Below are positions 3,315-31,460 of a DNA stretch of 64,000 bases, in pieces. This DNA is from Bacilli bacterium (GTDB taxonomy: Bacteria; Bacillota_I; Bacilli_A; RFN20; CAG-826), in contig JAFZRR010000062.1 in assembly GCA_017619815.1 (NCBI GenBank), positions 18,963 to 82,962 on the forward strand. The letters run 5' to 3'. The notes under the pieces were generated by a model, which did not search any database, had not been told where the DNA came from, and was given only the letters and a program-made list of their open reading frames with translations. Within the stretch, counting starts at the first letter, position 1. Every line of letters begins with the position of its first letter. A program made the position numbers and the translations under genes.

Positions 3315-4466
3315 TTGACGCTTATGGCAAGAAGTACTATTAAAGAATACTTTCTATATGGTGGTGTCACCAAAGAAGAATATGACTCCATCCGTCCTTT
3401 GATTCAGGAAGAAAATCACCGTGTTTGGCGACTAGTATCTATTCTTTTTGAATTTGTCTTTATTGGCTTATTCATTTTTGCTGTCGTCGCAGAAATCAAT
3501 TACACTTGGACAATTGGTTATGGCATTCTTGCTGGTAGTATGGTTTTCTCCGTCCTTGCTTTCTTCGTTTTATTAAAACCACAATCCAAAGCATTATTAC
3601 CATTTATTTATGTTTCTTTAGCAATTTTATTAGGCGCATGTATATATATCGGTGTCTTCGCTGAACCCCATAGACCTTCGATTGTTGTTCCAGCAATTAT
3701 TATCGGTGTCACATTCTTAACGCTTGATAGGCCTATTAGATTTATCATTATGCAAATTGTTACTTTAGCGGCATTCATCACTTTGGTTTGTATTTTTAAA
3801 CAAAATCAACCAGAAGGGACCACTATGATAGGTGGAATCAATTCAGTTCTTTTAACTGATGTGATGTGTAGTGGTGTCTTTACCGCAGCGGGTGTCTTAA
3901 TTTCCTTATTCTTATCATCCATACGTATGAGAGATTTGGTTATGAGAAAGAATGCCGAACAAGAAAGAGATAGAGATGCTTTAACAAATGTTGCCAACAA
4001 ATTAGCGTATGATCGTAAAGTGGATTATATCAACGGCAAATTAGGAGATAGTAACTTTAAGTTCGCTGTCGCCATCTTTGACGTCAATGGTTTAAAACAA
4101 ACTAACGATACATATGGTCATGATCAAGGTGACAAATTACTTGTTAGATGTTGTGAATTAATACAAAGTTCATTCCCAAATACCCCTATCTATCGTATCG
4201 GTGGTGACGAATTCGCTGCGATCATTCTTGGAGAAGATTACACAAATAGAGAAAAACTCATTCGTGAATTCCATGAAAGAATTGAACATTCTCACGAAGA
4301 AGCGGAATCTTTGTTAGAAGATACAAGTATTGCGATAGGTGTAGCTATCTATAATCCAAAAAGAGATAGAGACTATTTATCAGTCTTCTCTCGCGCAGAT
4401 GCGGAGATGTACGATAATAAGAGAGTGACAAAAGCGAGAAACGCTTTCTTACAAGAGAATCAATAG
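3315..4466 (+). CDS. membrane-anchored diguanylate cyclase (GGDEF domain)
   Basis: There are 5-6 N-terminal TM helices. The C-terminal domain carries 'AIFDVNGLKQTNDTYGHDQGDKLL...RIGGDEFAAI', an intact GGDEF active-site motif. The track start is TTG at 3315, and an in-frame ATG at 3324 is an alternative. A terminator follows at 4470..4494. Confidence 0.8.
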   Translation: MTLMARSTIKEYFLYGGVTKEEYDSIRPLIQEENHRVWRLVSILFEFVFIGLFIFAVVAEINYTWTIGYGILAGSMVFSVLAFFVLLKPQSKALLPFIYVSLAILLGACIYIGVFAEPHRPSIVVPAIIIGVTFLTLDRPIRFIIMQIVTLAAFITLVCIFKQNQPEGTTMIGGINSVLLTDVMCSGVFTAAGVLISLFLSSIRMRDLVMRKNAEQERDRDALTNVANKLAYDRKVDYINGKLGDSNFKFAVAIFDVNGLKQTNDTYGHDQGDKLLVRCCELIQSSFPNTPIYRIGGDEFAAIILGEDYTNREKLIREFHERIEHSHEEAESLLEDTSIAIGVAIYNPKRDRDYLSVFSRADAEMYDNKRVTKARNAFLQENQ

Positions 4467-6976: not shown

Positions 6977-7369
6977 ATGAATAAAACCGCAAAAAAAATT
7001 CTAGTATTCACAGGGTTAGGACTTGATGTTGCTCTAACACTTTTCTTATTTGTCGTTGCTATTATTATGATTGCAACTATGCCAAAAGATTCTTTAGCTA
7101 TGGATCATGCGATTGAAACAAATGGCAAATTCATTGGTTATTTACAACAACATTCGACTTTGTACTTATTAACTTGTGTGCTTCCATTATTTGTTTTACT
7201 AGCTGGAAATATTGCTATTTTGATTCTTTATGTTCGTAAAATTAATAAAAAGAAAGAAGCTGCTATTGATGATCTTAATGAAGAACAAAAAGCCGCTCTC
7301 CGTGCAGAATTATTAAAAGAGCTTCAAAGCGAAGCAAAAGAATCTGAAGAAGATAAAAAGTCTGAATAA
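6977..7369 (+). CDS. small membrane protein with a KE-rich C-terminal tail
   Basis: There are two TM helices and a charged coiled-coil tail. A terminator-like hairpin follows at 7401..7431. Confidence 0.5.
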   Translation: MNKTAKKILVFTGLGLDVALTLFLFVVAIIMIATMPKDSLAMDHAIETNGKFIGYLQQHSTLYLLTCVLPLFVLLAGNIAILILYVRKINKKKEAAIDDLNEEQKAALRAELLKELQSEAKESEEDKKSE

Positions 7370-7451
7370 TCAAATAATATCAAACTATAAAAATCAAAAT
7401 AGCGCCGTTAAATCGGTGCTTTTTGTTTCCTTATTATAAATAAAATTAATG

Positions 7452-7481
7452 TTGACAAGATAAATATGATTCCTATATATT
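7452..7481 (+). promoter_or_regulatory. sigma-A-like promoter driving riboswitch 1
   Basis: TTGACA is at 7452-7457, and a 17-18 nt spacer leads to TATATT at about 7476-7481. The aptamer begins about 14 nt downstream. Confidence 0.45.
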
Positions 7482-7492
7482 TGATTATGTAA

Positions 7493-7572
7493 AAAGCAAA
7501 ACAGTAGTGATACTGTGACGCAAAACTATAGGGTCTTAATAAATAAGGGGTAAGACAGCCAGTTGCCTTGTG
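7493..7572 (+). promoter_or_regulatory. c-di-GMP-I (GEMM-I) riboswitch aptamer 1
   Basis: AGCAAAAC-[CAGUA-GUGA-UACUG]-UGACGCAAAACUAUAGGGUCUUA...UAAGACAGCCAGUUGCC. The P2 hairpin has a GNRA (GUGA) tetraloop. The hallmark 'GACGCAAA(A/G)CUAUAGGGUC' is present. The P3 stem is GUCUUA/UAAGAC, and P1 pairs GCAA with UUGC. All of this matches the GEMM-I consensus as in Vc2 ('GGGCAAACC...GGACGCAAAGCC...'). Confidence 0.8.
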
Positions 7573-7620
7573 GATAGAAACAAAACCACTGTTATGATGA
7601 TAGGCAATGGCTTTTTGTTT
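7560..7620 (+). terminator. riboswitch 1 expression-platform terminator
   Basis: The 5' arm CAGUUGCCU is the P1 3' strand. It can pair with AGGCAAUGG at about 7601-7609, which is followed by CUUUUUGUUUU. This is mutually exclusive with P1, which implies an ON switch. Confidence 0.5.
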
Positions 7621-7676
7621 TAGTCCTTGGGACACATATTAATAAAAGACAAGCACTATTAAATTCAATTTTCAAT

Positions 7677-8456
7677 ATGGTCGATCTTAAATACATACGC
7701 AAACGTAAGACAAGACGAATCATAGCGGCGGTTGGAACTTCTTGTGCTGCAACAGCGATTATTATGATGGCTATTGCATTATTAGGTCAGAGGGCCGCTC
7801 CTTTAACTGTTACTTTGTCTAACAGTGGGGCGCAGCTTGCTTTATCTCAACATGCAGAGGAAGATTCTAATGCTGTTTATTTGGTAGCAGATTCAGTTCC
7901 GAGATATGATGAGTTCTGTGAAGAACAACTCATTTTAGCCAACAATGAATTGGAAATAGATGACGAAAATACTTATTCTCATTTAACTCCAAATGAACAG
8001 TCTACACTTTTCTTTAAGTATACATTCTATGTTACTAACAAAGGAAAGAGCGCAGCTAACTATGATTTGACTTTGTCAATGTCTCAACCAACCAAAGACG
8101 CGACGAATCGATACGATCTCGATTCTGTTTTGCGTGTGCGCTTCTACGAAAATAAAAATTTAGATGAGCACAACTACGTTACGTACGCGAAGAAAAGTTC
8201 CGAACCACACAAAGATGAAAACGGTAATCTTTCTTGGAAAGAAAAAGTTTCCGCTTTAGATGAAAGTGGATATGCAGAAGAATTCGTAAATTCTAGAACA
8301 ATTCTTACTTCCGCGGTTACTGGTTTAAAACCACAAGAAAAGATTAGATATACATTTGTATTTTGGATTGAGGGCGATGATCCACAATGCATGGATGAAG
8401 CCCCTGTTAATAGTGCACTTATCCTTGGAGTCGAAATAAGTGCGCACGAATCGTAA
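7677..8456 (+). CDS. secreted or membrane-anchored protein, first gene of the riboswitch-1 operon
   Basis: The N-terminal signal-anchor is 'RRIIAAVGTSCAATAIIMMAIALLG'. No known domain was recognised. The start lies 57 nt after the riboswitch terminator. Confidence 0.55.
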   Translation: MVDLKYIRKRKTRRIIAAVGTSCAATAIIMMAIALLGQRAAPLTVTLSNSGAQLALSQHAEEDSNAVYLVADSVPRYDEFCEEQLILANNELEIDDENTYSHLTPNEQSTLFFKYTFYVTNKGKSAANYDLTLSMSQPTKDATNRYDLDSVLRVRFYENKNLDEHNYVTYAKKSSEPHKDENGNLSWKEKVSALDESGYAEEFVNSRTILTSAVTGLKPQEKIRYTFVFWIEGDDPQCMDEAPVNSALILGVEISAHES

Positions 8457-9537
8457 AATATTCAACATAGCAAAAGACCGACTAATAATGCTGGCAACAG
8501 CAGTATTGTTCAATGTATCTCTCGCAGCAGTCGTCTGCGGGACTTTTGCTTGGTATTCGTACGCGACGCGCACAGGATTGGAAAAAGCATATCATGGAAC
8601 CACCGTTGGTGACATGGGATCATTACAAGCCGGTTTGGTTAGTGAGATTCAATTAGAAGACTATCTTGAATATGATTTAGCTGAAGATGACAGAACACTT
8701 GCCGACGAAGGTAAATACATTTACTGGTGTCAAGAAAATATTGCTGCAAGAACAATTAATTATGTTTTAGATAGCAATGGATATGCTACAACTGAAATGT
8801 ATCCAGTTACTTCCAGCGCTTTTGATTGGAGTGTGGAGAATCCAGAGTCTTTTTCACTATATTCAACACCTACTTATCTAAAAAATTATGATAAAAACGA
8901 TCTAGACTTTTTAGCTAATCCAAGAGACTACTCAGTCATGGATTTTGTTTTTAGATTTGAAGATATTGATAACATTGGCGAATATTTACCTGGTTATAAT
9001 GTTTTTCTTTCTGGCTGCAAAGTCGAAACTTCAAATGAAGAACACGAGATTTATAAATCAGTTCGCATTTTTTACAACAACGGATACGAAGGTGGCATAA
9101 TAAACCCAACAGCGACAGAAAATGGTTTTGATGTTGTTGGTGGTGTTCTCGATTTGAATGCCGATAACTTTTATGATTATGATGAAGAAACTTTCTTTGA
9201 AACAATATATGGTGAAGTCGAAAGTTTTGAATACAATTCAGAAGCAACAGAAAATGATGGAACACTTCCTTGGTATGAAACCGATACATTTATTTCCAAC
9301 CATAAAAAAGGTGTCTTTGCCCTTAATGACGAAACATTTGTTCCTAAAACCGTAAATTATATCGAAGGTGGTAGATTCACTTCCAAAGCGAAACGTATCA
9401 CCTATACAGATGAAACATACCATAATCTTGGCCGTTTTAAGATGTATTTATATTTTGAGGGTTGGGATACACATGTTGTTAATGAAGAGCAAGGATTTGG
9501 TTATAACCTTGATTTAGCATTCGCAGTGCAAATGTAA
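8440..9537 (+). CDS. secreted protein with a SipW-cognate-type signal peptide
   Basis: The start is GTG, with GGAG 10 nt upstream. The N-terminus 'MRTNRKIF...LMLATAVLFNVSLAAVVCGTFAWYSYA' carries the shared motif. Confidence 0.6.
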   Translation: MRTNRKIFNIAKDRLIMLATAVLFNVSLAAVVCGTFAWYSYATRTGLEKAYHGTTVGDMGSLQAGLVSEIQLEDYLEYDLAEDDRTLADEGKYIYWCQENIAARTINYVLDSNGYATTEMYPVTSSAFDWSVENPESFSLYSTPTYLKNYDKNDLDFLANPRDYSVMDFVFRFEDIDNIGEYLPGYNVFLSGCKVETSNEEHEIYKSVRIFYNNGYEGGIINPTATENGFDVVGGVLDLNADNFYDYDEETFFETIYGEVESFEYNSEATENDGTLPWYETDTFISNHKKGVFALNDETFVPKTVNYIEGGRFTSKAKRITYTDETYHNLGRFKMYLYFEGWDTHVVNEEQGFGYNLDLAFAVQM

Positions 9538-10625
9538 TGTACTATATGGACAAGAAAAAAGTAGCATTATTTGGAATAGCTGGATTGTCGCTTGTATTAG
9601 CGGCATCTATTTCTATGACTATCGCTTGGTATAACGGTAGTTCGTATTTAGCTATTAATCAGATTAACGTTGGCTTACATGATAAGAAATTATCTATTTC
9701 CACAGATAATGAAACTTTTAGAGATTTCATTCCTAACGATGAACTGAATAAGGTTGGTAAATTCAGGGCCGTTAGTACGATGTTCTGCGAGGACTGGATT
9801 GAAAGAAAAGAAGCAAAACCTGTATTTAAAGGTAGTTTTGGTACATCATCCAAAGATGTTGTTAATAGTGTGGATGATGCCAACAATACCTCAGGCGGGT
9901 ACTTCTCACAAGAAATCTTCATCAAGTGTGATTCCTCTGTTTATTTAACGTTAGATCCAGAACTAACCACATTTAATTCCGATGAAGAAGAAAACTTAAG
10001 TATGATTCAGGATTTACGTGAAAAATTCCCTGGTTTAACTGACGAGGAAATCTTATTCAACCTCAACAACGTTGTTAAATCATTGCGTATTTCGCTTCTC
10101 GTCTTAAATGATACAGGGGATGAAAGTGAAGAATTTCCTGATTATGCCTACTATATTATTGACCCATTTAAGGATAAAATAACTTTAATGGGTGGTATCC
10201 TAGATACCGATAAAGATGGTTTCTACGACTATTCTTTAGATAAAAATGAAGTCCTATACGGTCAGTCAATCTCGACTGACGAGGAAAAGTCAGTGGAAGA
10301 ATGTATCGTTTATAAAGATCCTACTGAAGCTGATGAAGAAGTAAGCACAAAAGAACTCACATGCTTTACTTCCGGCAACAAAGCAAATGTTAGAAAAATT
10401 GATTTCGATGCTTCGTTTGCCAACGGCCTGGCTATTAAAGAGGAACGTTCAACCGCTCTCGAAGATGTGGAAGAACAAGTTTTAATTCCACTTGAAGCCG
10501 ATGTCTCGAAGAGAATTATCTTATCTTTCTACCAAGAAGGATGGGACATCGAAAATACGGACTTCGTTAGATATTCTCATTTCTATGTGAATGTCATGTT
10601 TAAAATTGCCAGGGCTAGATTTTAG
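9537..10625 (+). CDS. secreted protein with a SipW-cognate-type signal peptide
   Basis: The N-terminus is 'MDKKKVALFGIAGLSLVLAASISMTIAWYNGSS'. The start overlaps the upstream stop as TAATG. Confidence 0.6.
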   Translation: MYYMDKKKVALFGIAGLSLVLAASISMTIAWYNGSSYLAINQINVGLHDKKLSISTDNETFRDFIPNDELNKVGKFRAVSTMFCEDWIERKEAKPVFKGSFGTSSKDVVNSVDDANNTSGGYFSQEIFIKCDSSVYLTLDPELTTFNSDEEENLSMIQDLREKFPGLTDEEILFNLNNVVKSLRISLLVLNDTGDESEEFPDYAYYIIDPFKDKITLMGGILDTDKDGFYDYSLDKNEVLYGQSISTDEEKSVEECIVYKDPTEADEEVSTKELTCFTSGNKANVRKIDFDASFANGLAIKEERSTALEDVEEQVLIPLEADVSKRIILSFYQEGWDIENTDFVRYSHFYVNVMFKIARARF

Positions 10626-10636
10626 GAGGTGGACTT

Positions 10637-12187
10637 ATGTCTGCATATTTTAATTATTTAGGGAAGTTGCTTGCTCAATTCTTTAGAGATTTAGCAGCGT
10701 TTTTCTATCATTTGATAGTGTGTCCATGGGGTGGCCACAGTAAAGGTTGGCCAAACATTGGATATAATTTCAAACTTTATAACGATTATTTGAAGGCATA
10801 TTCGCCAGAATTTGGTCCTCTAGGCTGGATTATGTGGGTGTTATTCTTATTACTCGCTATCGGCATGATCGGTGGTGCGTGTTATGGATTATTCCTACTT
10901 ATCCGTAAGTATGTTAAGTTCGCTAAGACTGAACTTGATAAAGATGCTTTAAAACGTCAAGTCGAAAGACTCAATTACGAGTTATATGACATGATGAAAG
11001 AAAGAGATAAGATTCTTGAATTAAAGATGAAATCTTTAGGTATTGACGGAAAACGTCCACCTGAAGAAGGTATGTCTGAAGAAGAACAAACTATCGATGA
11101 GATTCAATCTCGTTTCCCAAAATTATCACACGTTGATAATGAATATAACGGAAAAGATATGTCTATTCCTGAAGTCCCAGATCTTACTCTTGCACAAGTT
11201 TGCGAAAACTTCAGAAACTTCGCAGCAAGCCAAATGGGCTTGTATTACACAATCGACACCATCCGTCATGTTATTGCCGGTATCGGTGCGGGTAAAATTG
11301 TCATCCTTGAAGGTATTTCCGGTACAGGTAAAACCTCCATGCCTTATGCCTTAGGAAAATTCCTCAAGAACGATGCCAATATTTGTTCTGTCCAACCTAA
11401 CTGGAAGGATAGAAGTGAACTCTTAGGTTACTACAATGAATTCACAAAGAAATTCAATGAATCAGAATTCTTAAGAGCCTTATATACTTCTATTTATAGA
11501 AGAGATGTTAACATTATCGTCCTCGACGAAATGAACTTAGCTCGTGTCGAATACTACTTCGCCGAGTTCTTATCCATTCTTGAAATGCCTAATCCAAATG
11601 AATGGAATATTGAAATGATTGGTTCTCGTGACCCTCACGATCCAAAACTATTTAAAAATGGCAAAATTAAAGTCCCACAAAATGTGTTCTTCTTTGGAAC
11701 AGCGAACAACGACGATAGTACATTCACAATTTCCGATAAGGTCTATGACCGTGCTATCTGTTTATTCTTTGACAATAAAGGTATTGCCTTTGATGCTCCA
11801 TTCCAAGGACCAATGGATATTCCTTATGAACAACTTCAACACTTATATGATGAAGCTCTTGAGAAATTCCCAGTGAGTGAGAAGACACTTGAAAACTTCG
11901 CTTTATTAGATGACTTCGTTATTAAAAAGTTCAGATTGGCGTTTGGTAACCGTATTTTGAAACAACTCAAACAATTCGTTCCATGCTTCGTTGCCTGTGG
12001 TGGCACTGAACTCGATGGTATCGACTTCATCTTTACTAATAAAATTCTTAAGAAGTTCGAATCCTTAAACATCGGCTTCTTAAAACAAGAACTTAAAGAA
12101 CTTAATCAAATGCTCGATAAATTGTTCGGCACAAACACATTCCCAATGGCCCGTAACTTTATCGATCGTATGATTAGAATGAACTAA
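10637..12187 (+). CDS. membrane-anchored AAA+ ATPase of the AAA_5 / McrB-like family
   Basis: RBS GGAGGTGG precedes the start. There is an N-terminal TM ('WIMWVLFLLLAIGMIGGACYGLFLLI') and a coiled coil. Walker A is 'ILEGISGTGKTSMPYALGKF' and Walker B is 'IIVLDEMNLARVEYYFAEFLSILE'. The sensor region 'FFFGTANNDDSTFTISDKVYDRA' follows the McrB/MoxR-dynein pattern. Confidence 0.7.
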   Translation: MSAYFNYLGKLLAQFFRDLAAFFYHLIVCPWGGHSKGWPNIGYNFKLYNDYLKAYSPEFGPLGWIMWVLFLLLAIGMIGGACYGLFLLIRKYVKFAKTELDKDALKRQVERLNYELYDMMKERDKILELKMKSLGIDGKRPPEEGMSEEEQTIDEIQSRFPKLSHVDNEYNGKDMSIPEVPDLTLAQVCENFRNFAASQMGLYYTIDTIRHVIAGIGAGKIVILEGISGTGKTSMPYALGKFLKNDANICSVQPNWKDRSELLGYYNEFTKKFNESEFLRALYTSIYRRDVNIIVLDEMNLARVEYYFAEFLSILEMPNPNEWNIEMIGSRDPHDPKLFKNGKIKVPQNVFFFGTANNDDSTFTISDKVYDRAICLFFDNKGIAFDAPFQGPMDIPYEQLQHLYDEALEKFPVSEKTLENFALLDDFVIKKFRLAFGNRILKQLKQFVPCFVACGGTELDGIDFIFTNKILKKFESLNIGFLKQELKELNQMLDKLFGTNTFPMARNFIDRMIRMN

Positions 12188-12239
12188 TTTTAATAAGCAA
12201 AAATTTGCTTATTATTTCCCCTTATATTAAACTATTACT

Positions 12240-14903
12240 ATGGCAAAATTATCAAAATATCAAACTCTCCAGAAGAAATTAATGGCTCAGACAACTAAGT
12301 TGTTTGATCTTAGTGATGCCAAAGAGCTTTATACTGCACTTTCTAATGGTCAAAATTCTTATTTAAGATTTGATAGATTTGAAAGTACCGCCATGGATAT
12401 GACATGGATTAAACAAATTGAAGACTGTATCCCAGACCTCAATGAAATCGTTTCTAATCCAAAAAGAACTATTCAAACTCTCGCTGAAGTCGTGGAAGTG
12501 GAAAAAGTTAAAAGAACTACCCACGAATCTGTTCAGCATTTAGCGAGCCATTCTCAATTCGTTAAAACCATTGATGAAGATGGAAATGTTACTCCATCTA
12601 AGATTTTGAATGTTTACAACGATGACTTCTTTGCAATTTACGAAAATAAATTCGTTGCTACATTATTAAGAAGATTATTCTTATTCGTGGAAAAGAGATA
12701 TGACTACATCATCCATCAAGCGACATTAAAAGATGTTGAGTTGTTATATTTCAAAAACAAAACCGAAATCAATGGTAGTGAAATTGAGATTGAAACAAAA
12801 ATCAGATATTCAAAACCAGCTTTGGATGAAGCAGATGAAAAATTAAAAGAAATGCTTCGCAGAATTAATGATATTAGAAGATATCTTAGATTCTTTGGTG
12901 GTTCTGAATTTATGAGAATCTTACATCGTGAAAGAGATGTTAGAAACCCAATTCTTCAAACAAACATTATTCGTAAGAACCCAAAATACAGACACTGCTA
13001 CCATTTGTGGCAATTTATCAATTCATATAATGAATCTGGTGTCGAAATTAAAGTTGAAGAAAACTTTGCTAAATTAACCGAAGAAGACTTAAAAGAAATT
13101 AATAAGGTTTTAACTATTAACTTCTTAGCCTTGAAAGGTAGAGATGCACCAGTTCAAGAAGCTAAACCAAAGATTTACCGTCCTCGTATTTTAAGAACGT
13201 ATGACGATGAAATGTACAATCCAGGTGCATCTTTTGACTCACCTGTGGAATTCGTTCGTGTTGATGAGAAATATCGTCAATATAAGGAAACTTTGAAAGA
13301 TCTCAATCCTCATCCTACTAAGGCGTACGCGGAATATATGAAAAATGAGTACGCGGATAATAAATTAAGAAGAGAAGAAACCGCTCAAAAGGATTCTTTA
13401 ATTAAGCGTAAAGAAAACGAATACAAGAAATACGAAAAGACCCAAGAAGAACTTCTCATCAAAGAACAAGAAGATTGGGAAATGATTGGTGATCTTGCTG
13501 AACAACAAATTCAGGAAGAACAAGAAGAAAGACTTAGACCACTTCGTGAAAAACTCGGTATCCAAGGTGATGAAGATGAAACAAGAATTAACGATGCCAT
13601 CTCCACTGAAGGACGTATGCAAGAAATCATCGAAGATGCTCCTATTAGAAAACCTTCTCAACCAGTCGAAGAAGAACCAGAAGAACTCGACTCCATGCCA
13701 ATTGAAGTGGCGGAAGAAGTCGTTAGTAAAAAAGAGCCTCAAAAAGAAGAATCACAACAACCAGCCGAACAACCTAAAGAAGAAAAAGTTAAGGGCAGTT
13801 GGGGTGGTGCTCGTGCAGGTGCTGGTCGTAAACCAAAACCACGTCCTGAACCTGTAGAGGAAGTTCAAGAAGAACAACCACAACCTGAACCAGAACCAGT
13901 CGTGGAAGAAAAGACTGAAGAACCTGTTAAAGTTAAGGGTTCATGGGGCGGAGCACGTCCAGGCGCAGGTAGAAAACGTAAGGTTGTTGAACCAGTAGAA
14001 GAAGCTCCTGTTGAGGAAGAACCTGTGGTTGAAACTCAACCAGAACCTGTCCAAGAACAAGAACCAGTCAAGGTCAAAGGATCTTGGGGTGGTGCAAGAC
14101 CTGGCGCAGGCCGCAAACGCAAAGTGGTTGAAGAACAACCTCAAGAAACTCAACCAGAGCCGCAGCCAGAACCAGTTATAGAAGAACCTCAACCAGTTGC
14201 TGAACAACGTGTCAAAGGTAGTTGGGGCGGAGCTAGACCAGGCGCAGGAAGAAAACGCAAAATCGTTGCAGAACCTGAAGAAGTTAAGGGAGAAACTCCT
14301 ACAGAACCAGAGCCAATTAATGAATCAGAACCAGTAAAAGTGAAAGGCTCATGGGGAGGTGCACGTCCAGGTGCTGGTCGTAAACGTAAAGTGGTGGAAG
14401 AACAACCACAAGAAGCTGCTCCAATTGAAGAAAAACCAGTTGAACAACCACAACCTATAGAAGAAAAAGTTAAAGGATCTTGGGGTGGTGCAAGACCTGG
14501 AGCTGGTAGAAAACGTAAGGTTGTTGAACCTGAACCAGTCGTTGAAGAAACACCAGTTCAAGAAACTCCTATAACAGAAGAACAACCAGTTAAAAAACAA
14601 CGTGGTGGTTATCGCCCAGGTGCAGGTAGGAAACCGAAGAAACCAGTGGTTCATATGGAAGCAGTGGAAAACACACCTGCTGAAGTTGTTATTAAAAAGC
14701 AAAGAGGTGGCGCACGTCCTGGTGCAGGTCGTAAACCAAAACCAAAGACCGAGCAACCTATTAAAGGCAAATGGGGAGGCGCAAGACCAGGAGCTGGCCG
14801 TAAGCCAAAACCAAAATCTGATGTGCCAGTCGTAAAGAAACAACGTGGTGGAGCACGTCCTGGTGCAGGAAGAAAACCAAAACCACGTCCAGAAAACGAA
14901 TAA
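12240..14903 (+). CDS. cytoplasmic repeat protein: about 330-aa N-terminal domain, an E/K/Q/P-rich linker, then about ten 'GGARPGAGRK(R/P)K' basic repeats
   Basis: There is no signal peptide. The units 'VKGSWGGARPGAGRKRKVVE' recur every 42-48 aa from about aa 517, and the final four are 'KKQRGGARPGAGRKPKP'. It is tightly linked within the operon. Confidence 0.6.
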   Translation: MAKLSKYQTLQKKLMAQTTKLFDLSDAKELYTALSNGQNSYLRFDRFESTAMDMTWIKQIEDCIPDLNEIVSNPKRTIQTLAEVVEVEKVKRTTHESVQHLASHSQFVKTIDEDGNVTPSKILNVYNDDFFAIYENKFVATLLRRLFLFVEKRYDYIIHQATLKDVELLYFKNKTEINGSEIEIETKIRYSKPALDEADEKLKEMLRRINDIRRYLRFFGGSEFMRILHRERDVRNPILQTNIIRKNPKYRHCYHLWQFINSYNESGVEIKVEENFAKLTEEDLKEINKVLTINFLALKGRDAPVQEAKPKIYRPRILRTYDDEMYNPGASFDSPVEFVRVDEKYRQYKETLKDLNPHPTKAYAEYMKNEYADNKLRREETAQKDSLIKRKENEYKKYEKTQEELLIKEQEDWEMIGDLAEQQIQEEQEERLRPLREKLGIQGDEDETRINDAISTEGRMQEIIEDAPIRKPSQPVEEEPEELDSMPIEVAEEVVSKKEPQKEESQQPAEQPKEEKVKGSWGGARAGAGRKPKPRPEPVEEVQEEQPQPEPEPVVEEKTEEPVKVKGSWGGARPGAGRKRKVVEPVEEAPVEEEPVVETQPEPVQEQEPVKVKGSWGGARPGAGRKRKVVEEQPQETQPEPQPEPVIEEPQPVAEQRVKGSWGGARPGAGRKRKIVAEPEEVKGETPTEPEPINESEPVKVKGSWGGARPGAGRKRKVVEEQPQEAAPIEEKPVEQPQPIEEKVKGSWGGARPGAGRKRKVVEPEPVVEETPVQETPITEEQPVKKQRGGYRPGAGRKPKKPVVHMEAVENTPAEVVIKKQRGGARPGAGRKPKPKTEQPIKGKWGGARPGAGRKPKPKSDVPVVKKQRGGARPGAGRKPKPRPENE
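13786..14900 (+). repeat. in-frame coding tandem repeats (about 126-144 bp units, degenerate) encoding the GGARPGAGRK motifs
   Basis: AAGGG(T/A)TC(A/T)TGGGG(T/C)GG(T/A)GC(A/T)(C/A)G(T/A)CC(A/T)GG(T/C)GC(A/T)GG(T/C)(C/A)G(T/A)AAAC(G/C)(T/A)AA recurs at 13792, 13933, 14071, 14215, 14341, 14467, 14590, 14695, 14764 and 14839. Confidence 0.8.
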
Positions 14904-14916
14904 AAAGAATTAATTT

Positions 14917-15696
14917 ATGTTTGGAAAAGACAAAAAAGAGAAAAAACCTAAAAGTAAAGCCAGGAAGATAATCGATTGGGTTGTCACTGGTGTCTTTGTG
15001 GCATTAATTACTGGAGTAGTCGTTGTCCAAATTATAAATAAAACAAGTAAGAACCAATTCGTCCTCGGACCTCAATATCAAAAGGTTCTTACAGACTCAA
15101 TGTCCCCTGTCTATAAAGTTAACGATATTATTGTCGTTGAAAAGACAAGTGCAGCAGATTTGTATAAAAGGGTGAATGAGAAACACCAAGATGTTGATCT
15201 TTCATTTAAATGGGATATTGATGGCCAAGAAGTTTCTATGACGCATAGACTTCAAACAGTGACGTATTCCGAGGAAGTCCAATTTGATCCAATCTCTGGC
15301 GTTGGATACCATTACACATTTGTCGCACATGGTATCAATAAAACCAGTGAATGGTGTAAAGGCACTGGTGGCTACTATGATTGTACAAATCAAACTCAAA
15401 CGTTCCATGAGGATGCAATCATAGGAAGAGTAACTAGAAAGAGTTACTTGATGACCTTTGCGACATCTATATGGGGATTACTAATATTATTATTAGTGCC
15501 TTGTATGTATCTCATCATTGCGAGTGTGCTTGATATATTCAAAGCGGTGAAAGATGATGATGAAGTTCCTGCAAATGGTGAAGTAGTGGGTGAAGCCAGT
15601 GATAAACCAAAAGATCCACTTGCTGGATTAAGTGAAAAAGAAAAAGAAAAACTCAAGAAGCAAATGCTTGATGAAATGTTAGGAAAGAAAAAATAG
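14917..15696 (+). CDS. sipW: SipW-type (S26B, archaeal/ER-type) signal peptidase I
   Basis: The N-terminal TM is followed by 'VLTDSMSPVYKVNDIIVVEK' (B. subtilis SipW has 'VLSGSMEPTFKTGSLIAVKK', catalytic Ser). The catalytic His context 'SMTHRLQTV' parallels SipW 'AVTHRIVDI'. There is a C-terminal TM anchor and a KE-rich tail. Confidence 0.75.
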   Translation: MFGKDKKEKKPKSKARKIIDWVVTGVFVALITGVVVVQIINKTSKNQFVLGPQYQKVLTDSMSPVYKVNDIIVVEKTSAADLYKRVNEKHQDVDLSFKWDIDGQEVSMTHRLQTVTYSEEVQFDPISGVGYHYTFVAHGINKTSEWCKGTGGYYDCTNQTQTFHEDAIIGRVTRKSYLMTFATSIWGLLILLLVPCMYLIIASVLDIFKAVKDDDEVPANGEVVGEASDKPKDPLAGLSEKEKEKLKKQMLDEMLGKKK

Positions 15697-15717
15697 TTAG
15701 AAAGGAGAAGCGAAAGT

Positions 15718-17253
15718 ATGTACAAACAAAAAAGAACTGCTCGTGCGTTATTTATTGTCTTTCTTGTTTTTACAGTTGTTGGATTGATTAGCATTGTTGC
15801 TTATCAATTTGTGCCACAGTTAAAGGACTATCACTTTATTACTTTAGGTGCTGCTTTAATCACATGTGGTTATGCTGCGGTTGCTTTTGCTAACCTTTAT
15901 AAATTAATTTCCTACAATGAACAAATCCGTTCTCTTTATGTGGAAAATAGATACAACCTTTCTCGTGAAAGCTTGTTCTATAACTACACAATGTTTGAAA
16001 AGAGAATTAATAAATTAACCAAATTACATAAGAAATCGGGTTCTTATATCATTGCATTCACTGCATCAAAGAGAACCGTCATGAGAAACTTATATAGAAA
16101 CGGAACTGTTACTCAATTAAATGGTTTCATTTCTGACTCATTAAACGAAATCTTGAGTCATAACAAACAATATGAACAAGATGATTTTGCATATTGTTAT
16201 TACCATGGCCAATTTGTCATCTATACATACTTACCACTTAACAAAGTGCAAGATATCATTTTGAACATTCAAAAAGAAATCTACGCAATTGTGGCAAGAA
16301 ATGACTTAAAGGTTTATACAATACCATATTTCGGTGTTGCGGATGTGAGACCAGAATTATCTTTATTTGAATGTTTAGATAACGCATTAACTGCAAGAGA
16401 TTATTCTGAAAAGCACTTTGAAGCGGAAACATTCTATTCTGATGATTTAAGAAAAGATGCTTCTTTAAGTGAAGTTGAAGAATTAAGAGAAGCTATCAAG
16501 AACAATGAAATGGAAGTTTATTATCAACCAAAATTCCATTTAGCCACGAAGAGGTTTGTGGGCTGTGAAGCTTTGGTGAGATGGAATTCTCCAAGATATG
16601 GTTTATTAGCACCAGGCAGATTCTTAGATAAAGCAGAAATCTCTGGTTTAATTCATGAAATTGATATGTTTGTCTTTAAACGTGTCTGTGAAGACTTAGC
16701 GTCCATTCGTAGAAAAGGTGACAGAATGCTTCCTGTCTCTGTCAATTTCTCTATGTATGAATTCTATTCACAAGACTTCTTTGACAACATCTCAAAGATT
16801 ATTAATAAAACCGGTGTTTCTACTTCTTTGATCCAAATTGAAGTTACTGAAACAACCGCACAAGCAAATCCATTTATGACCACATCTATTCTTAAGAAAC
16901 TAAAAGAAAATGGTTTCCGTATTTTAATGGATGACTTTGGTTTAGGTTTTTCTAACCTAGGTAATTTAAACAGAATGGAATTTGATACAGTTAAGATTGA
17001 TAAGACATTTATCGATGGTTTAATTACCGACGCAAAGAGTAGAGAAATCGTTAAATTCTTAATTGCTTTATGTAAAACAAACAATATGGAAGTTATCGCT
17101 GAAGGTGTTGATAAGGTGGAACAAGTGGAAATCTTAAGAAAAGCCAAATGTGATGTTATTCAAGGTTTCTATTATTCCAAACCATTACCAATCAGAGATT
17201 ATCAAGACTTCCTAAAGAATAACCCATTTGAAAAGAAAGAGGAGGCTGAATAG
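15718..17253 (+). CDS. membrane-anchored c-di-GMP phosphodiesterase (EAL domain)
   Basis: RBS AAAGGAGAAG precedes the start and there are 2 N-terminal TM helices. The EAL motifs are intact: 'GCEALVRWNSP', 'LMDDFGLGFSNL', 'IAEGVDKVEQ' and 'QGFYYSKP'. Confidence 0.8.
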   Translation: MYKQKRTARALFIVFLVFTVVGLISIVAYQFVPQLKDYHFITLGAALITCGYAAVAFANLYKLISYNEQIRSLYVENRYNLSRESLFYNYTMFEKRINKLTKLHKKSGSYIIAFTASKRTVMRNLYRNGTVTQLNGFISDSLNEILSHNKQYEQDDFAYCYYHGQFVIYTYLPLNKVQDIILNIQKEIYAIVARNDLKVYTIPYFGVADVRPELSLFECLDNALTARDYSEKHFEAETFYSDDLRKDASLSEVEELREAIKNNEMEVYYQPKFHLATKRFVGCEALVRWNSPRYGLLAPGRFLDKAEISGLIHEIDMFVFKRVCEDLASIRRKGDRMLPVSVNFSMYEFYSQDFFDNISKIINKTGVSTSLIQIEVTETTAQANPFMTTSILKKLKENGFRILMDDFGLGFSNLGNLNRMEFDTVKIDKTFIDGLITDAKSREIVKFLIALCKTNNMEVIAEGVDKVEQVEILRKAKCDVIQGFYYSKPLPIRDYQDFLKNNPFEKKEEAE

Positions 17254-17254
17254 T

Positions 17255-17992
17255 ATGATTTTGATCGTTGGCAGTAATCATGATGATGTCATCTATTTTC
17301 AAAGTGCATTAAAAGACGCTAAAGAAGAAATTATTCTTAACAAGTATCGTGCATCTATCGGCACCATCCTCAATCAAAACGTGATGGTTCTTCAAGATGT
17401 CTATACATCCTATGTTAGCAGTGCATTATTAACTCATATCATTGAGAAATACTTCGTTCTCATGGTATTTGTCGTCGGCACATGTTTTGCGCAAAATAAA
17501 GCCTTAAAAGTGGGAGATATCGCTATCAGCGAAATGGCGACATTTGGTGATGTTGATCAAATCAAAATGCTCAAAGGTACAAATCTTGGTCAAATCCCAG
17601 GATACCCACAACTCTTCTATTCCCATAAAGAATTAATTAGAAATATGGAAGAAGCTCTCAACAGTGTTGGAGCGAATAACTATATGCGCTGCACATTTAT
17701 GAATTCTTCCTACTATAGAAGAGATGAACAATTAATCGAAGAATTATCAATGGAAGATAATATCGCAAATAGAAATAAGAACACTGTCCTTGATGGTGTG
17801 ACAACTGGTGTTGCTTTAGCGGCACATCTATTTGATATTCCATTTATTTCCGTCAAAGTCATTGAAGGACAAGCTGGACAAAGAACATCCATTGATTCAT
17901 ATATGACAATTCTTGAAGAATATAGTGTTGTCGGAAAAGCCGTTACTGTCTGTATTGGTGAAATCAGCCGTAACGATGTTTTGAGAGGATAA
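17255..17992 (+). CDS. MTA/SAH-nucleosidase (Pfs/PNP_UDP_1) family protein, divergent at catalytic positions
   Basis: The start was moved to ATG 17255, which has RBS AGAGGAGG. 'KVGDIAISEMATFGDVDQ' matches Pfs 'KVGDIVVSDEARYHDADV', 'IPGYP' matches 'LPGCP', and 'VTTGVALAAHLFDIPFISVKVIEG' matches '[25 protein letters not shown]'. The Pfs catalytic Asp197 and Glu174 equivalents appear to be replaced by G and D. Confidence 0.55.
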   Translation: MILIVGSNHDDVIYFQSALKDAKEEIILNKYRASIGTILNQNVMVLQDVYTSYVSSALLTHIIEKYFVLMVFVVGTCFAQNKALKVGDIAISEMATFGDVDQIKMLKGTNLGQIPGYPQLFYSHKELIRNMEEALNSVGANNYMRCTFMNSSYYRRDEQLIEELSMEDNIANRNKNTVLDGVTTGVALAAHLFDIPFISVKVIEGQAGQRTSIDSYMTILEEYSVVGKAVTVCIGEISRNDVLRG

Positions 17993-17997
17993 TAATT

Positions 17998-20900
17998 ATG
18001 AAACAAAAACAACAATCCTCATTAAGAACATATATTTCTAAGAGTTACTTAGCTTTAATCATTATCGCAGCGGTGATGATTATTTCACTAGGTTTATTCT
18101 TAGTTGGTTTTATCGTTTTAGATGGAACGCTTCAATTAGTATTTGAAATAGTGGGTGGCTCTCTCTTACTACTTTCACTTATTGGAGTATTTGTTTTATT
18201 CATTCTTTCATCCGAAAAACAATATAACTTGTTCTATAACACCCTTTACAAGGGAAGTATGAAGAACTTAGAAGCTATTAAAGATAGAAATTTAGAAGTT
18301 GATCAAATTCCTGATGAATCAGTGAAAGAATTCCAAGAAATTAACGAAATCTTCAATGATATTAATGATCAATATAAAGGCAAAATTATTACTTCTAAAG
18401 AAGGCGATATTGAGAATATCCCATTAGAATACTTTGATGATGAAAAAGTATTGGTCAGCTATGACTCATTGATGAATAACATCGTTGATTTAATTATTGT
18501 TACCAAATCATTTAGAAATGCTTTAGTGGAAATCTATTATGACTTACAAGCGGAAGATATCTCTGAAAACGATGAGAAGAGAATCTTAAATAAGATTAAA
18601 GAAGGTCTTCAATATAAGAACTTATTAATTTCTAAGAACAAGAAACAAAATGGTTTCATTATTTATGTTCCTGTCTTTGATAGTGTTTCTCAACTTCAAG
18701 AAGAAATCGAAGGCTTGTTCCGTCACATTTCTATTATCAAGAGAACAAATGAAGGTAGAAAGATTGTCGCTCCAAAAGTAGCGATAGTTATTTATCCATA
18801 TTCTTCACCAGAAAATATGGTCAATGATTTAGCAATCGCAAAGAGAAGTGATAAGACAATTAATGTCTTCTTACCATCTAAAGAAAATAAAGCTAATAAT
18901 TCTCCATTATTCGAAAATCTCAATGTTAATGAATTAGCAAAGATATCTGAAAGATTGGATTTATTAGATATCGATGATGTTGATGGTCAAAAAGAAATCA
19001 ATCGCGCCTTGAATGATATTTGTAATTACTTCTCATTCACATCTGTTGGCTACGCAAAACTCAATAAAGTTAAGAAACAATTCCTTTGTGAATATTCATA
19101 TTCTCCAGAAGAAAAACACTTAGTATTACAAGAAAAACCAATCTCCGCGAAGTTTATCAATAAATTAGTGGAAGTTAAAGATAGTGATCAATCTTACTAT
19201 TTCAGCAATAGACAACACCTTAATGATTCTTTAGCGGCGTTTATCGATAGTCACGAAATCAAATCTGGTTTGTTCTATCTCGTTATGAAAGATGGTATCG
19301 CTGTCGGTGTTATTTACTATCTCAATAACGATAAAGAGATGGAATACGATTGTTCCATCAAGCAAGGTTTAATTAATATTTCCAACAAGATTGGTAATTA
19401 CATCAAATCTATTGATGATCAACATATCGCAAATATCAACGCGAAGAGATTCCAAGAAGTCTTAAAACTCAATAATGATATTCTCTATTCTGTTAACCCA
19501 GATGATTATTCATTATTCTTTGTGTCCGCAGCGCTTCAATCTATTTGTCCAAGTGCACAAATAGGTGAGAAGTGTCATAAAGCCTTATATGGTAGTGATA
19601 CTCCATGTAAAGCTTGTCCACTTGTGACCAAGAAACATATGGTGGAAATCTTAAAACGTCGTAAATTTGAAACTAGTGTCGTTTTACATAACTCCGAAGA
19701 TAAAGCGGAACACCTATACTTAAAACCAATGGAAAAGAATAAGAATACAAGTGACTTGTTCTCACCTGATTTCTTAATCAATTCCTATTACTCCTTCTGC
19801 TCATACTTAGAAGATGAATTCGCCTTAGAACATGAAGGTGAAATCTTATTCTTAAATATCGATAACGTTCCTCAATTAATTAAATCATTAGGTAACGATG
19901 GTTATATCAAGGCGATTAGAAACTTCTTTGATGCTATTAGAGAAGAAATTGATATGAACTTAACATTATATTTATATAAGAATGATAACTTTGCGTTATT
20001 ATTCCCAAGCAGTTCAAAAGAAGATGTTATCTCTTTAACCGAATCCTTGTATAGCCTTGCTAAACAAAATATGGTGGGTAGCAAACAAGCTGCATTAAAC
20101 ATTTCTTACTATGACTTCAAATACCCTGAATCAAGCAAGGAATATAAATTATGGATAAATCATGCCGAAAAAGTCATGACAGGTCTCAGAAGAGGCAAAA
20201 AGACCGATTTAATTTACTTTAATGAAGATAAGTACACTAGAAGTGCTTCTAGAGAAGAATTCATGCTTCAAAATGTTCTCGAAGCCTTCAAGAGAAAGAA
20301 ATACTTCATGGAATATCAACCAATTGTTGGCAATAGAGATAGAGTTATCCATGGTGCTGAATTATTGCTCAGATTAAACGATCCATTTACCAATGCTCCA
20401 CTTAACATTGGTGAGGCAATCAATATCGTGACCAAACACAACCGTATTGATTTGGTCGCAGAAGCTATGACTGATTGTCTAGAAAAATTATTCCAAGTTG
20501 CGGATTTACCATTCTTCCAATCCATGGGCCTAGAACATTTATCTGTGAACGTTGATTATCAAACATTATCTGATAAATCATTTATTGAAAGCTTTGATTC
20601 TTTAACCAAGAAACATAACGTTCCAAAAGGATTTATCTGCTTTGAAGTTCCTGAATCTGACATTATGGATCATTATGATGAATTTAGAGATTTACACTTC
20701 GAAAACGAAGTCTTGGTGTGTGACCAATATCATGGTGAACTCTTAAGACTTGACCAATTACAAGCTATTGGATTTAAAGAAGTTAAGATGTCTAGAGACG
20801 TTATCTTAAATATCATTAATGATGACGTTGCCTTACAACGCGCGAATGATGTTTGGAAGTTTGCAAACGAAATCGGTATGTTTGTGACATTTGTCGGTGT

Positions 20901-21051
20901 TGAAAAACGTCAACAAGCTGACTTATTACATGATGATGTCCGTGATAGTAACTTCCAAGGTCGATTCTTCTATTCCCCAATGAGTGAAGAGAAGTTCTTC
21001 AAGACATTACGTGAATCCTCAATTAAATCAATTGCGGATTTAGATAACTAA
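17998..21051 (+). CDS. large membrane-anchored protein with a C-terminal degenerate EAL domain (candidate c-di-GMP sensor)
   Basis: There are 2 N-terminal TM helices and a Cys cluster, 'CPSAQIGEKCHKALYGSDTPCKACP'. The C-terminus 'EYQPIVGNRDRVIHGAELLLRL' is EAL-like with the catalytic E retained, but the DDFG(T/A)G metal-binding motif is replaced by 'DQYHGE'. 'FVGVEKRQQ' and 'QGRFFYSP' are retained. Confidence 0.65.
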   Translation: MKQKQQSSLRTYISKSYLALIIIAAVMIISLGLFLVGFIVLDGTLQLVFEIVGGSLLLLSLIGVFVLFILSSEKQYNLFYNTLYKGSMKNLEAIKDRNLEVDQIPDESVKEFQEINEIFNDINDQYKGKIITSKEGDIENIPLEYFDDEKVLVSYDSLMNNIVDLIIVTKSFRNALVEIYYDLQAEDISENDEKRILNKIKEGLQYKNLLISKNKKQNGFIIYVPVFDSVSQLQEEIEGLFRHISIIKRTNEGRKIVAPKVAIVIYPYSSPENMVNDLAIAKRSDKTINVFLPSKENKANNSPLFENLNVNELAKISERLDLLDIDDVDGQKEINRALNDICNYFSFTSVGYAKLNKVKKQFLCEYSYSPEEKHLVLQEKPISAKFINKLVEVKDSDQSYYFSNRQHLNDSLAAFIDSHEIKSGLFYLVMKDGIAVGVIYYLNNDKEMEYDCSIKQGLINISNKIGNYIKSIDDQHIANINAKRFQEVLKLNNDILYSVNPDDYSLFFVSAALQSICPSAQIGEKCHKALYGSDTPCKACPLVTKKHMVEILKRRKFETSVVLHNSEDKAEHLYLKPMEKNKNTSDLFSPDFLINSYYSFCSYLEDEFALEHEGEILFLNIDNVPQLIKSLGNDGYIKAIRNFFDAIREEIDMNLTLYLYKNDNFALLFPSSSKEDVISLTESLYSLAKQNMVGSKQAALNISYYDFKYPESSKEYKLWINHAEKVMTGLRRGKKTDLIYFNEDKYTRSASREEFMLQNVLEAFKRKKYFMEYQPIVGNRDRVIHGAELLLRLNDPFTNAPLNIGEAINIVTKHNRIDLVAEAMTDCLEKLFQVADLPFFQSMGLEHLSVNVDYQTLSDKSFIESFDSLTKKHNVPKGFICFEVPESDIMDHYDEFRDLHFENEVLVCDQYHGELLRLDQLQAIGFKEVKMSRDVILNIINDDVALQRANDVWKFANEIGMFVTFVGVEKRQQADLLHDDVRDSNFQGRFFYSPMSEEKFFKTLRESSIKSIADLDN

Positions 21052-31353: not shown

Positions 31354-31385
31354 AAATAAAAAACCGAAGTTTTTCATCCCCTCGG
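31354..31385 (-). terminator. riboswitch 2 expression-platform terminator
   Basis: On the - strand, CCGAGG-GGAUGAAAAA-CUUCGG is followed by UUUUUUAUUU. The 5' arm overlaps the 3' end of P1 (GUUGCC|GAGG). Confidence 0.55.
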
Positions 31386-31450
31386 CAACTGGCTGTCTTC
31401 GATTAAGACCCTATAGCTTTGCGTCACCACATCACTGTGGGTTTGCTATT
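31382..31450 (-). promoter_or_regulatory. c-di-GMP-I (GEMM-I) riboswitch aptamer 2
   Basis: On the - strand: AGCAAACC-[CACA-GUGA-UGUG]-GUGACGCAAAGCUAUAGGGUCUUAAUCGAAGACAGCCAGUUGCC. The P2 base pairs covary relative to aptamer 1 (CAGUA/UACUG becomes CACA/UGUG) while the conserved nucleotides are identical. Confidence 0.8.
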
Positions 31451-31460
31451 AACGTCTTAT

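Follow-up and report, generated by a model that had tools for sequence, protein, structure and literature searches.

Analysis of a 64,000-nucleotide stretch of DNA (the window) points to a class-I c-di-GMP riboswitch that probably acts as a transcriptional ON switch for a nine-gene operon. The sensor part of the riboswitch is ordinary, and the riboswitch itself brings no new principle. Its only unusual features are a conserved alternative helix and a conserved box in the expression platform, which are partly unexplained. The element would tie c-di-GMP directly to a gene cluster that appears uncharacterised and that is conserved across some 60 species-level genomes of uncultured Bacilli from ruminants and the gut. 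The riboswitch gives a first functional handle on this cluster, suggesting a surface or matrix structure that would be induced at high c-di-GMP under built-in negative feedback.

A c-di-GMP-I aptamer behind a sigma-A-type promoter

We identified two matches to the Rfam c-di-GMP-I family (RF01051) in a covariance-model scan of the whole window. The match upstream of the operon lies at 7485-7570 on the forward strand and scores 63.4 bits (Rfam cmscan, E 4.7e-10) against a gathering score of 35 bits, with an alignment that spans the full model (1-87). The same match was recovered when 7400-7760 was rescanned alone (E 2.6e-12), and no other Rfam family came near threshold on the platform in that scan. 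The search thus bears out a preliminary description of this DNA, which had recognised a GEMM-I aptamer from its motifs and proposed RF01051 as the check.

All of the listed motifs are found at their claimed places on the forward strand. GCAAAAC (7496-7502) leads into a first hairpin, ACAGUA-GUGA-UACUGU, with a GNRA loop (7501-7516). The aptamer core GACGCAAAACUAUAGGGUC follows (7517-7535), then a second hairpin (GUCUUA, 7533-7538; UAAGAC, 7551-7556) and CAGUUGCC (7560-7567). Two adjacent hairpins, the first of them GNRA-capped, are the arrangement that characterises the RF01051 class. The alignment shows agreement at conserved positions of the consensus, among them the GCAAA core, its G, and AGC. 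At the tetraloop receptor, the consensus CUAAg...uAuG is aligned to CUUAA...UAAG with low posterior (4-6), and the inner helix is non-canonical. The stem of the GNRA-capped hairpin covaries across related leaders (CCGUA/UACGG, CCACA/UGUGG, UUAUA/UAUAA). Judged by its sequence, 7485-7570 is a genuine class-I c-di-GMP riboswitch aptamer, with predicted selectivity for c-di-GMP.

A sigma-A-type promoter with 11/12 matches lies immediately upstream (7452-7481, forward strand). Its elements, TTGACA (7452-7457) and TATATT (7476-7481), are those of the preliminary description, which gave the spacer as 17 nt; we measure 18 nt, or 16 nt when the -10 is read as TATATA. Comparable promoters were found 5-14 nt upstream of the aptamer in 23/52 related leaders by a crude scan. 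We infer a transcription start near 7487-7489. A promoter so placed, which is directly supported, would put the 5' end of the RNA a few bases ahead of the aptamer.

The riboswitch is conserved upstream of the same gene

Homologues of the first gene of the operon (gene 1) fall into 58 clusters, all metagenomic. A scan of one genome per species identified 60 loci that encode such a homologue, nearly all of them carrying the label of an uncultured rumen or gut member of the Bacilli or Erysipelotrichaceae. The aptamer lies 140-270 nt upstream of gene 1 at nearly every locus. RF01051 was the sole Rfam match in each of the related loci tested (17/17, 41-69 bits). The same riboswitch design stands before the same gene in about 55 species-level genomes, all from uncultured Bacilli of ruminants and the gut.

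A predicted terminator shares its 5' strand with the aptamer

Strand a (GCCAGUUGCCU, 7558-7568, forward strand) serves as the 3' strand in the basal helices of the aptamer and again as the 5' strand of a terminator stem, so that one strand belongs both to the helix modelled by Rfam and to the terminator. Its partner, strand a' (AGGCAAUGGC, 7602-7611, forward strand), forms the 3' side of the stem and is directly followed by the U-tract UUUUUGUUUU (U5GU4, 7612-7621, forward strand). The duplex of 7558-7568 with 7602-7611 has 10 bp, six of them G-C, with G7562 bulged. The stem, at -15.6 kcal/mol, combines with U5GU4 to give the stable stem and U-tract of a terminator.

Folding of the RNA up to the end of the U-tract gave -29.0 kcal/mol for the terminator and -22.9 kcal/mol for the aptamer-enforced structure, a gap of about 6 kcal/mol in the absence of ligand. 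The default state would therefore be termination, which a ligand-stabilised aptamer would prevent. In the proposed mechanism, 7558-7568 of an empty aptamer would pair with 7602-7611 to form a branched hairpin followed by U5GU4, a step with direct support, and this hairpin would terminate RNA polymerase. With c-di-GMP bound, the 3' strand would be held in the aptamer, the terminator stem would stay open and the polymerase would read on.

Comparison of related leaders is consistent with this arrangement. Strand a is kept as GCCAG(U/C/G)U(G/A)CC in all leaders, and the duplex of a with a' has a mean energy of -16.6 kcal/mol among 54 leaders. When the RNA is cut at the U-tract, the terminator pairing appears in the minimum-energy fold of 51/54 distinct leaders. 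Compensatory changes, which offset the shared-strand changes only partly, pair GCCAGCUGCC with GGCAGCUGGC in two loci (L007 and L037) and GUUACC with AGGUA in two others (L030 and L035). A U-tract, defined as at least 6 U within 8 nt at that position, follows the terminator in 47/54 leaders. It is weak or absent in 7/54, so termination may not be the sole or universal read-out. The earlier proposals of a terminator built on the aptamer's 3' strand and of the ON logic that follows from it are both supported computationally, by the conserved overlap and by the energetic preference for the terminator without ligand.

A simple terminator scan did not list the terminator at 7558-7621 because its loop is 33 nt long; an interior of this size is unusually large and atypical. 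Single-sequence folds were no better than those of shuffled sequences (z -1.3, -1.7 and -0.5). With these weak z-scores and the missed terminator, the evidence for the element comes from its covariance-model score and from the related leaders.

We also observed a duplicated arrangement in nine loci of a sister clade (L036, L043, L047, L048, L049, L051, L052, L058 and L060). Here a degenerate copy of the 3' strand, AGCCAGCAACC, forms the end of the aptamer and runs into a strong inserted hairpin (AACCUCAAU...AUUGAGGUU, -15 to -16 kcal/mol) and then UUUAUAUUU. The stem of the inserted hairpin covaries among the nine loci. An exact second copy, AAGAUAGCCAGUUGCC, and the normal platform follow (for example, L049:9745-9990). 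These loci therefore carry two terminator-like hairpins in series, each after its own copy of the aptamer strand (AGAUAGCCAG). The first copy scores lower in Rfam (46-48 bits). One aptamer could here read two terminators in succession, which would amount to a built-in double check.

A second covarying helix in the platform

Fold predictions place a hairpin, which we call hairpin A, within the terminator loop (7570-7589, forward strand), with GUGG (7570-7573) paired to CCAC (7586-7589) around an A-rich loop. Its stem varies by locus (GGGG/CCC, GAGA/UCUC, GGCUUGA/UCAAGCC). The 5' strand and loop of hairpin A double as the 5' strand of an alternative hairpin, in which 7572-7588 (GGAUAGAAACAAAACCA) pairs with 7608-7626 (UGGCUUUUUGUUUUAGUCC, forward strand) at -16.4 kcal/mol. 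In this alternative helix the U-tract is buried, together with the 3' half of the terminator and a few bases that follow the tract.

Once strand a is blocked in folding, as a stand-in for the ligand-bound aptamer, the alternative helix appears in the minimum-energy fold of 54/54 leaders. A partner-swap test gave -11.3 kcal/mol for native pairs and -5.5 kcal/mol (sd 3.0) for swapped pairs, and 43/54 native pairs ranked within the best 10%. These comparisons identify 7572-7588 and 7608-7626 as a covarying second helix that the preliminary description had not seen. Conservation of the helices was judged in this way for each sequence, by duplex energies and by swapping partners. Counting covariation by column in a MAFFT alignment was dropped, as one-base register shifts between clades misalign both helices.

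The strands follow one another in the order a, b, a', b'', so the alternative helix crosses the terminator stem and the two are mutually exclusive alternatives. A pseudoknot that combines the a:a' stem with the second helix was considered and appears sterically unlikely, given connectors of 1-4 nt against an 11-bp stem. Part of the 3' strand of the alternative helix lies beyond the U-tract, and the helix therefore cannot itself cause antitermination. Pairing of 7572-7588 with 7608-7626 in read-through RNA, with burial of the terminator's 3' half and U-tract, is directly supported; the resulting long hairpin would lock the ON, or read-through, conformer. Being unusually conserved, the platform lends itself naturally to studying how ON riboswitches keep the read-through state stable.

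A conserved box and a possible second regulatory step

We identified two further conserved elements on the forward strand of the platform. The segment GAUGAUAGG (7596-7604) occupies near-invariant alignment columns and runs into the 3' strand of the terminator from upstream. The box UUGGGACA (7627-7634) directly follows the alternative hairpin; its GGGA is invariant in the alignment, and the box as a whole is near-invariant in all clades, across gene-1 identities down to about 26%. Each of the two elements occurs a single time in the 64-kb window. A simple ON-terminator model needs neither of them, nor the second helix, and all three count against it. The preliminary description had presented the platform as a plain two-state terminator. 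The terminator stands, but the platform also holds a second conserved helix and an invariant box, and both its elaboration and its sequence conservation exceed what such a terminator would require.

Several candidate roles for the box were tried and rejected. As a repeated protein site it would be expected to recur, but the box and GATGATAGGCA were each found once in 64 kb. Read by eye, no -10 stands at a consistent and correct spacing for a -35 or alternative-sigma element, and no reading frame is conserved that would make it a mini-ORF. A sliding duplex search over each leader found no conserved box partner. GUCUUA, the 5' strand of the second aptamer hairpin, was the most frequent partner, but at only -6 to -7 kcal/mol and without following sequence changes.

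It is possible, though we hold this only tentatively, that the leader is a conserved multi-state device that couples c-di-GMP antitermination to a second step in RNA stability, processing or translation. Two partners covary with the strand adjoining the shared strand: hairpin A and the segment beyond the terminator. Sequences resembling the aptamer strand GCCAGUUGCC recur in the terminator loop and again past the terminator (CCAUUG). If such a device exists, the UUGGGACA box would be freed or buried according to its state.

Two-layer control seems to us unlikely. Here the terminator would act first, and the alternative hairpin and box would serve a second, post-transcriptional step in the read-through RNA, in which a protein, a ribosome or an RNase could gain access to the box, or translation of gene 1 could be controlled. 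The covarying helix that forms in all 54 leaders and the retention of the box at low gene-1 identity favour such a step, as does the persistence of helix and box in some leaders that lack the U-tract. Gene 1 (start at 7677) has no Shine-Dalgarno sequence upstream in the window or in most related leaders, unlike the many other window genes that carry strong AGGAGG-type sites. The sequence after the box (GAC-A-CAUAUU) pairs with the start-codon region AAUAUGGUC at -8.4 kcal/mol in the window and in one related locus (L001). As a general mechanism this pairing fails, because native and swapped energies are nearly equal (-4.7 vs -4.4 kcal/mol, median rank 0.5). Dual control of transcription and translation has been reported for the long Bc1 platform (PMC11218506). 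Against two-layer control stand the lack of a consistent box partner in the leaders searched and of any protein candidate, and the helix could merely stop refolding or shield the RNA.

A syntenic operon with c-di-GMP signalling genes

The genes that the transcriptional ON switch would control lie on one strand, from 7677 to 21051. Gene 1 (7677-8456, forward strand, 259 aa) encodes an N-terminal membrane or signal helix and a predicted beta-sandwich. Genes 2 and 3 (8440-10625, forward strand; 365 or 349 aa, and 362 aa) are distant paralogues whose N-terminal hydrophobic segments end in FAWY and IAWY. The two lengths of gene 2 reflect its start: the mechanical ORF begins at a GTG at 8440 and overlaps gene 1, and the public call begins at an ATG at 8488 and gives 349 aa. 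Neither Pfam nor NCBIfam gave a match for genes 1-3, even with the E limit relaxed to 5. Nor did we find in them a TasA or camelysin (Peptidase_M73) domain or a SipW-cognate signal peptide, as would mark TasA/SipW substrates.

Profile matches describe the remaining genes, all on the forward strand. Genes 4 and 5 span 10637-14903. Gene 4 encodes a membrane-anchored, McrB-like AAA_5 ATPase (AAA_5, 5.5e-05; PADLOC PDC-M26A, 1.7e-39; McrB chains, E 0.002) and, unlike McrB, has N-terminal membrane segments. Gene 5 encodes an 887-aa DUF2357 protein (1.5e-06), in which domain searches detected no nuclease domain. In McrBC-type pairs of a GTPase with a nuclease, a McrC-like subunit comes after the McrB-like AAA+ subunit. 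Genes 6-9 span 14917-21051. Gene 6 is distantly SipW-like: it matches NCBIfam SipW at E 1.3e-12, but with 47.6 bits against a cut-off of 190, and it also matches archaeal-type signal peptidase I (3.2e-05). Gene 7 encodes an EAL protein, gene 8 a PNP_UDP_1 (MTA-nucleosidase-like) protein and gene 9 a degenerate GGDEF domain with an EAL domain. The operon was earlier called a secreted-protein operon. That label fits the three genes with N-terminal membrane or signal segments, but leaves out the AAA+, DUF2357, SipW-like, EAL, nucleosidase-like and GGDEF-EAL genes.

The order gene 1, gene 2, gene 3, AAA_5, DUF2357, SipW-like, EAL, PNP_UDP_1 (window 7677-17992) is kept in all sufficiently long related contigs (L002-L059). 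By this conserved order, the operon is a syntenic eight-to-nine-gene cluster. Gene 4 is by far its best conserved member (53-93% identity), and in some related loci genes 1 and 2 are separated by an additional 1-3.6 kb.

The cluster probably makes a surface or matrix structure. It would supply three beta-sandwich proteins that are membrane-bound or secreted, the proteins that probably process and assemble these three, and an EAL phosphodiesterase. When c-di-GMP is high, it would then induce both the surface structure and, through the EAL protein, its own degradation; the presence of this phosphodiesterase in the operon implies negative feedback. The EAL and GGDEF genes in and beside the operon argue for a c-di-GMP switch.

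We made two observations on the surroundings of the operon. The first 21 kb of the window contain a GGDEF gene (3315-4466), an EAL gene (15718-17253) and a GGDEF-EAL gene (17998-21051); with two c-di-GMP riboswitches, the window is unusually dense in c-di-GMP signalling genes. Directly upstream of the leader lies a 130-aa ORF (6977-7369, forward strand) that has only sub-threshold Pfam matches and ends in its own terminator (7401-7420). A homologue of this ORF occupies the same position in 44/60 related loci.

Alternative ligand responses

The leader could bind ligand without regulating, its terminator being ligand-independent and the element merely attenuating expression; we consider this very unlikely. 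A precedent that counts against the ON reading is Bc1 of Bacillus thuringiensis, which binds ligand yet gave no expression response to c-di-GMP in reported assays (PMC11218506). Positions 7586-7588 and their counterparts in other loci (GCCAUUG) can also pair with a', which would give a second, ligand-independent hairpin before the U-tract. However, at least 50 species-level genomes keep the overlap, with compensatory changes to the strand that aptamer and terminator have in common, which is hard to explain without selection for switching.

Even less room is left for an OFF switch, in which c-di-GMP binding would favour termination or block translation, although class-I c-di-GMP riboswitches of both polarities exist (reviewed in PMC6366702). 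Because a single strand serves as the 3' strand of the aptamer and the 5' strand of the terminator, the folded aptamer and the terminator exclude one another; upstream of the terminator we found no separate antiterminator, and gene 1 has no ribosome-binding site to sequester.

Sensing of 3'3'-cGAMP (by a GEMM-Ib-type variant) or of another dinucleotide is just as improbable: GEMM-I variants with changed specificity are known from Geobacter, but EAL and GGDEF proteins are encoded in the operon and its neighbourhood, and the leader retains both the G before CAAA (G7496) and the cytosine of AGC (C7559), which we take to be the c-di-GMP-specific Vc2 G20 and C92, cGAMP variants presumably carrying A20. 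In the RF01051 alignment, G7496, A7523 and C7559 fall on upper-case conserved consensus positions. We take these to be the ligand-contacting Vc2 positions G20, A47 and C92, an assignment that argues for c-di-GMP over cGAMP.

Comparison with a second aptamer and with known riboswitches

The other RF01051 match in the window lies at 31381-31457 on the reverse strand and scores 57.6 bits. It precedes three ORFs on the minus strand, which are 1491, 1438 and 437 aa long; the first has a Big_3 domain. The likely true start of the ORF that it precedes is an in-frame ATG 45 nt downstream of the listed start. The 3' end of this aptamer, UUGCCGAGG, continues into a weak hairpin (CCGAG...CUUCGG) with U6AUUU behind it, and the element may be another ON-type design. 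Its leader has neither the GAUGAUAGG segment nor the UUGGGACA box.

Among characterised systems, Bc2 of Bacillus thuringiensis BMB171 is a c-di-GMP-I ON switch, shown experimentally to act by antitermination upstream of cap, which encodes a collagen adhesion protein (PMC4933901). The leader described here shares with Bc2 its aptamer class, a Bacilli host, a position in the 5' UTR, a transcriptional ON design and a cell-surface target (both predicted here). It differs in the genes downstream and in that the platform itself is strongly conserved and includes an invariant box as well as a second helix that covaries.

Bc1, from B. thuringiensis, is a c-di-GMP-I riboswitch whose expression platform is long and contains two terminators (PMC11218506). 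The present leader is likewise a long, multi-element platform with alternative structures, and the sister-clade loci also have two terminator-like hairpins. The leader in the window, however, has one terminator, and separate copies of the aptamer strand for each hairpin, as in the sister clade, are not described for Bc1.

Vc2 of Vibrio cholerae is the structural reference for RF01051, and the aptamer shares its GCAAA, GNRA-capped hairpin, ACGCAAA and AGC. The second-hairpin loop, in contrast, aligns poorly (posterior 4-6), which leaves the tetraloop-receptor match uncertain, and the expression platforms are unrelated.

A parallel in logic is the pbuE (ydhL) adenine riboswitch, a textbook ON terminator in which the 3' strand of the closing helix is the 5' strand of the terminator. 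Both systems use a shared strand and need no separate antiterminator. The pbuE riboswitch differs in ligand and fold, and it lacks the conserved post-terminator helix and box that mark the leader described here.
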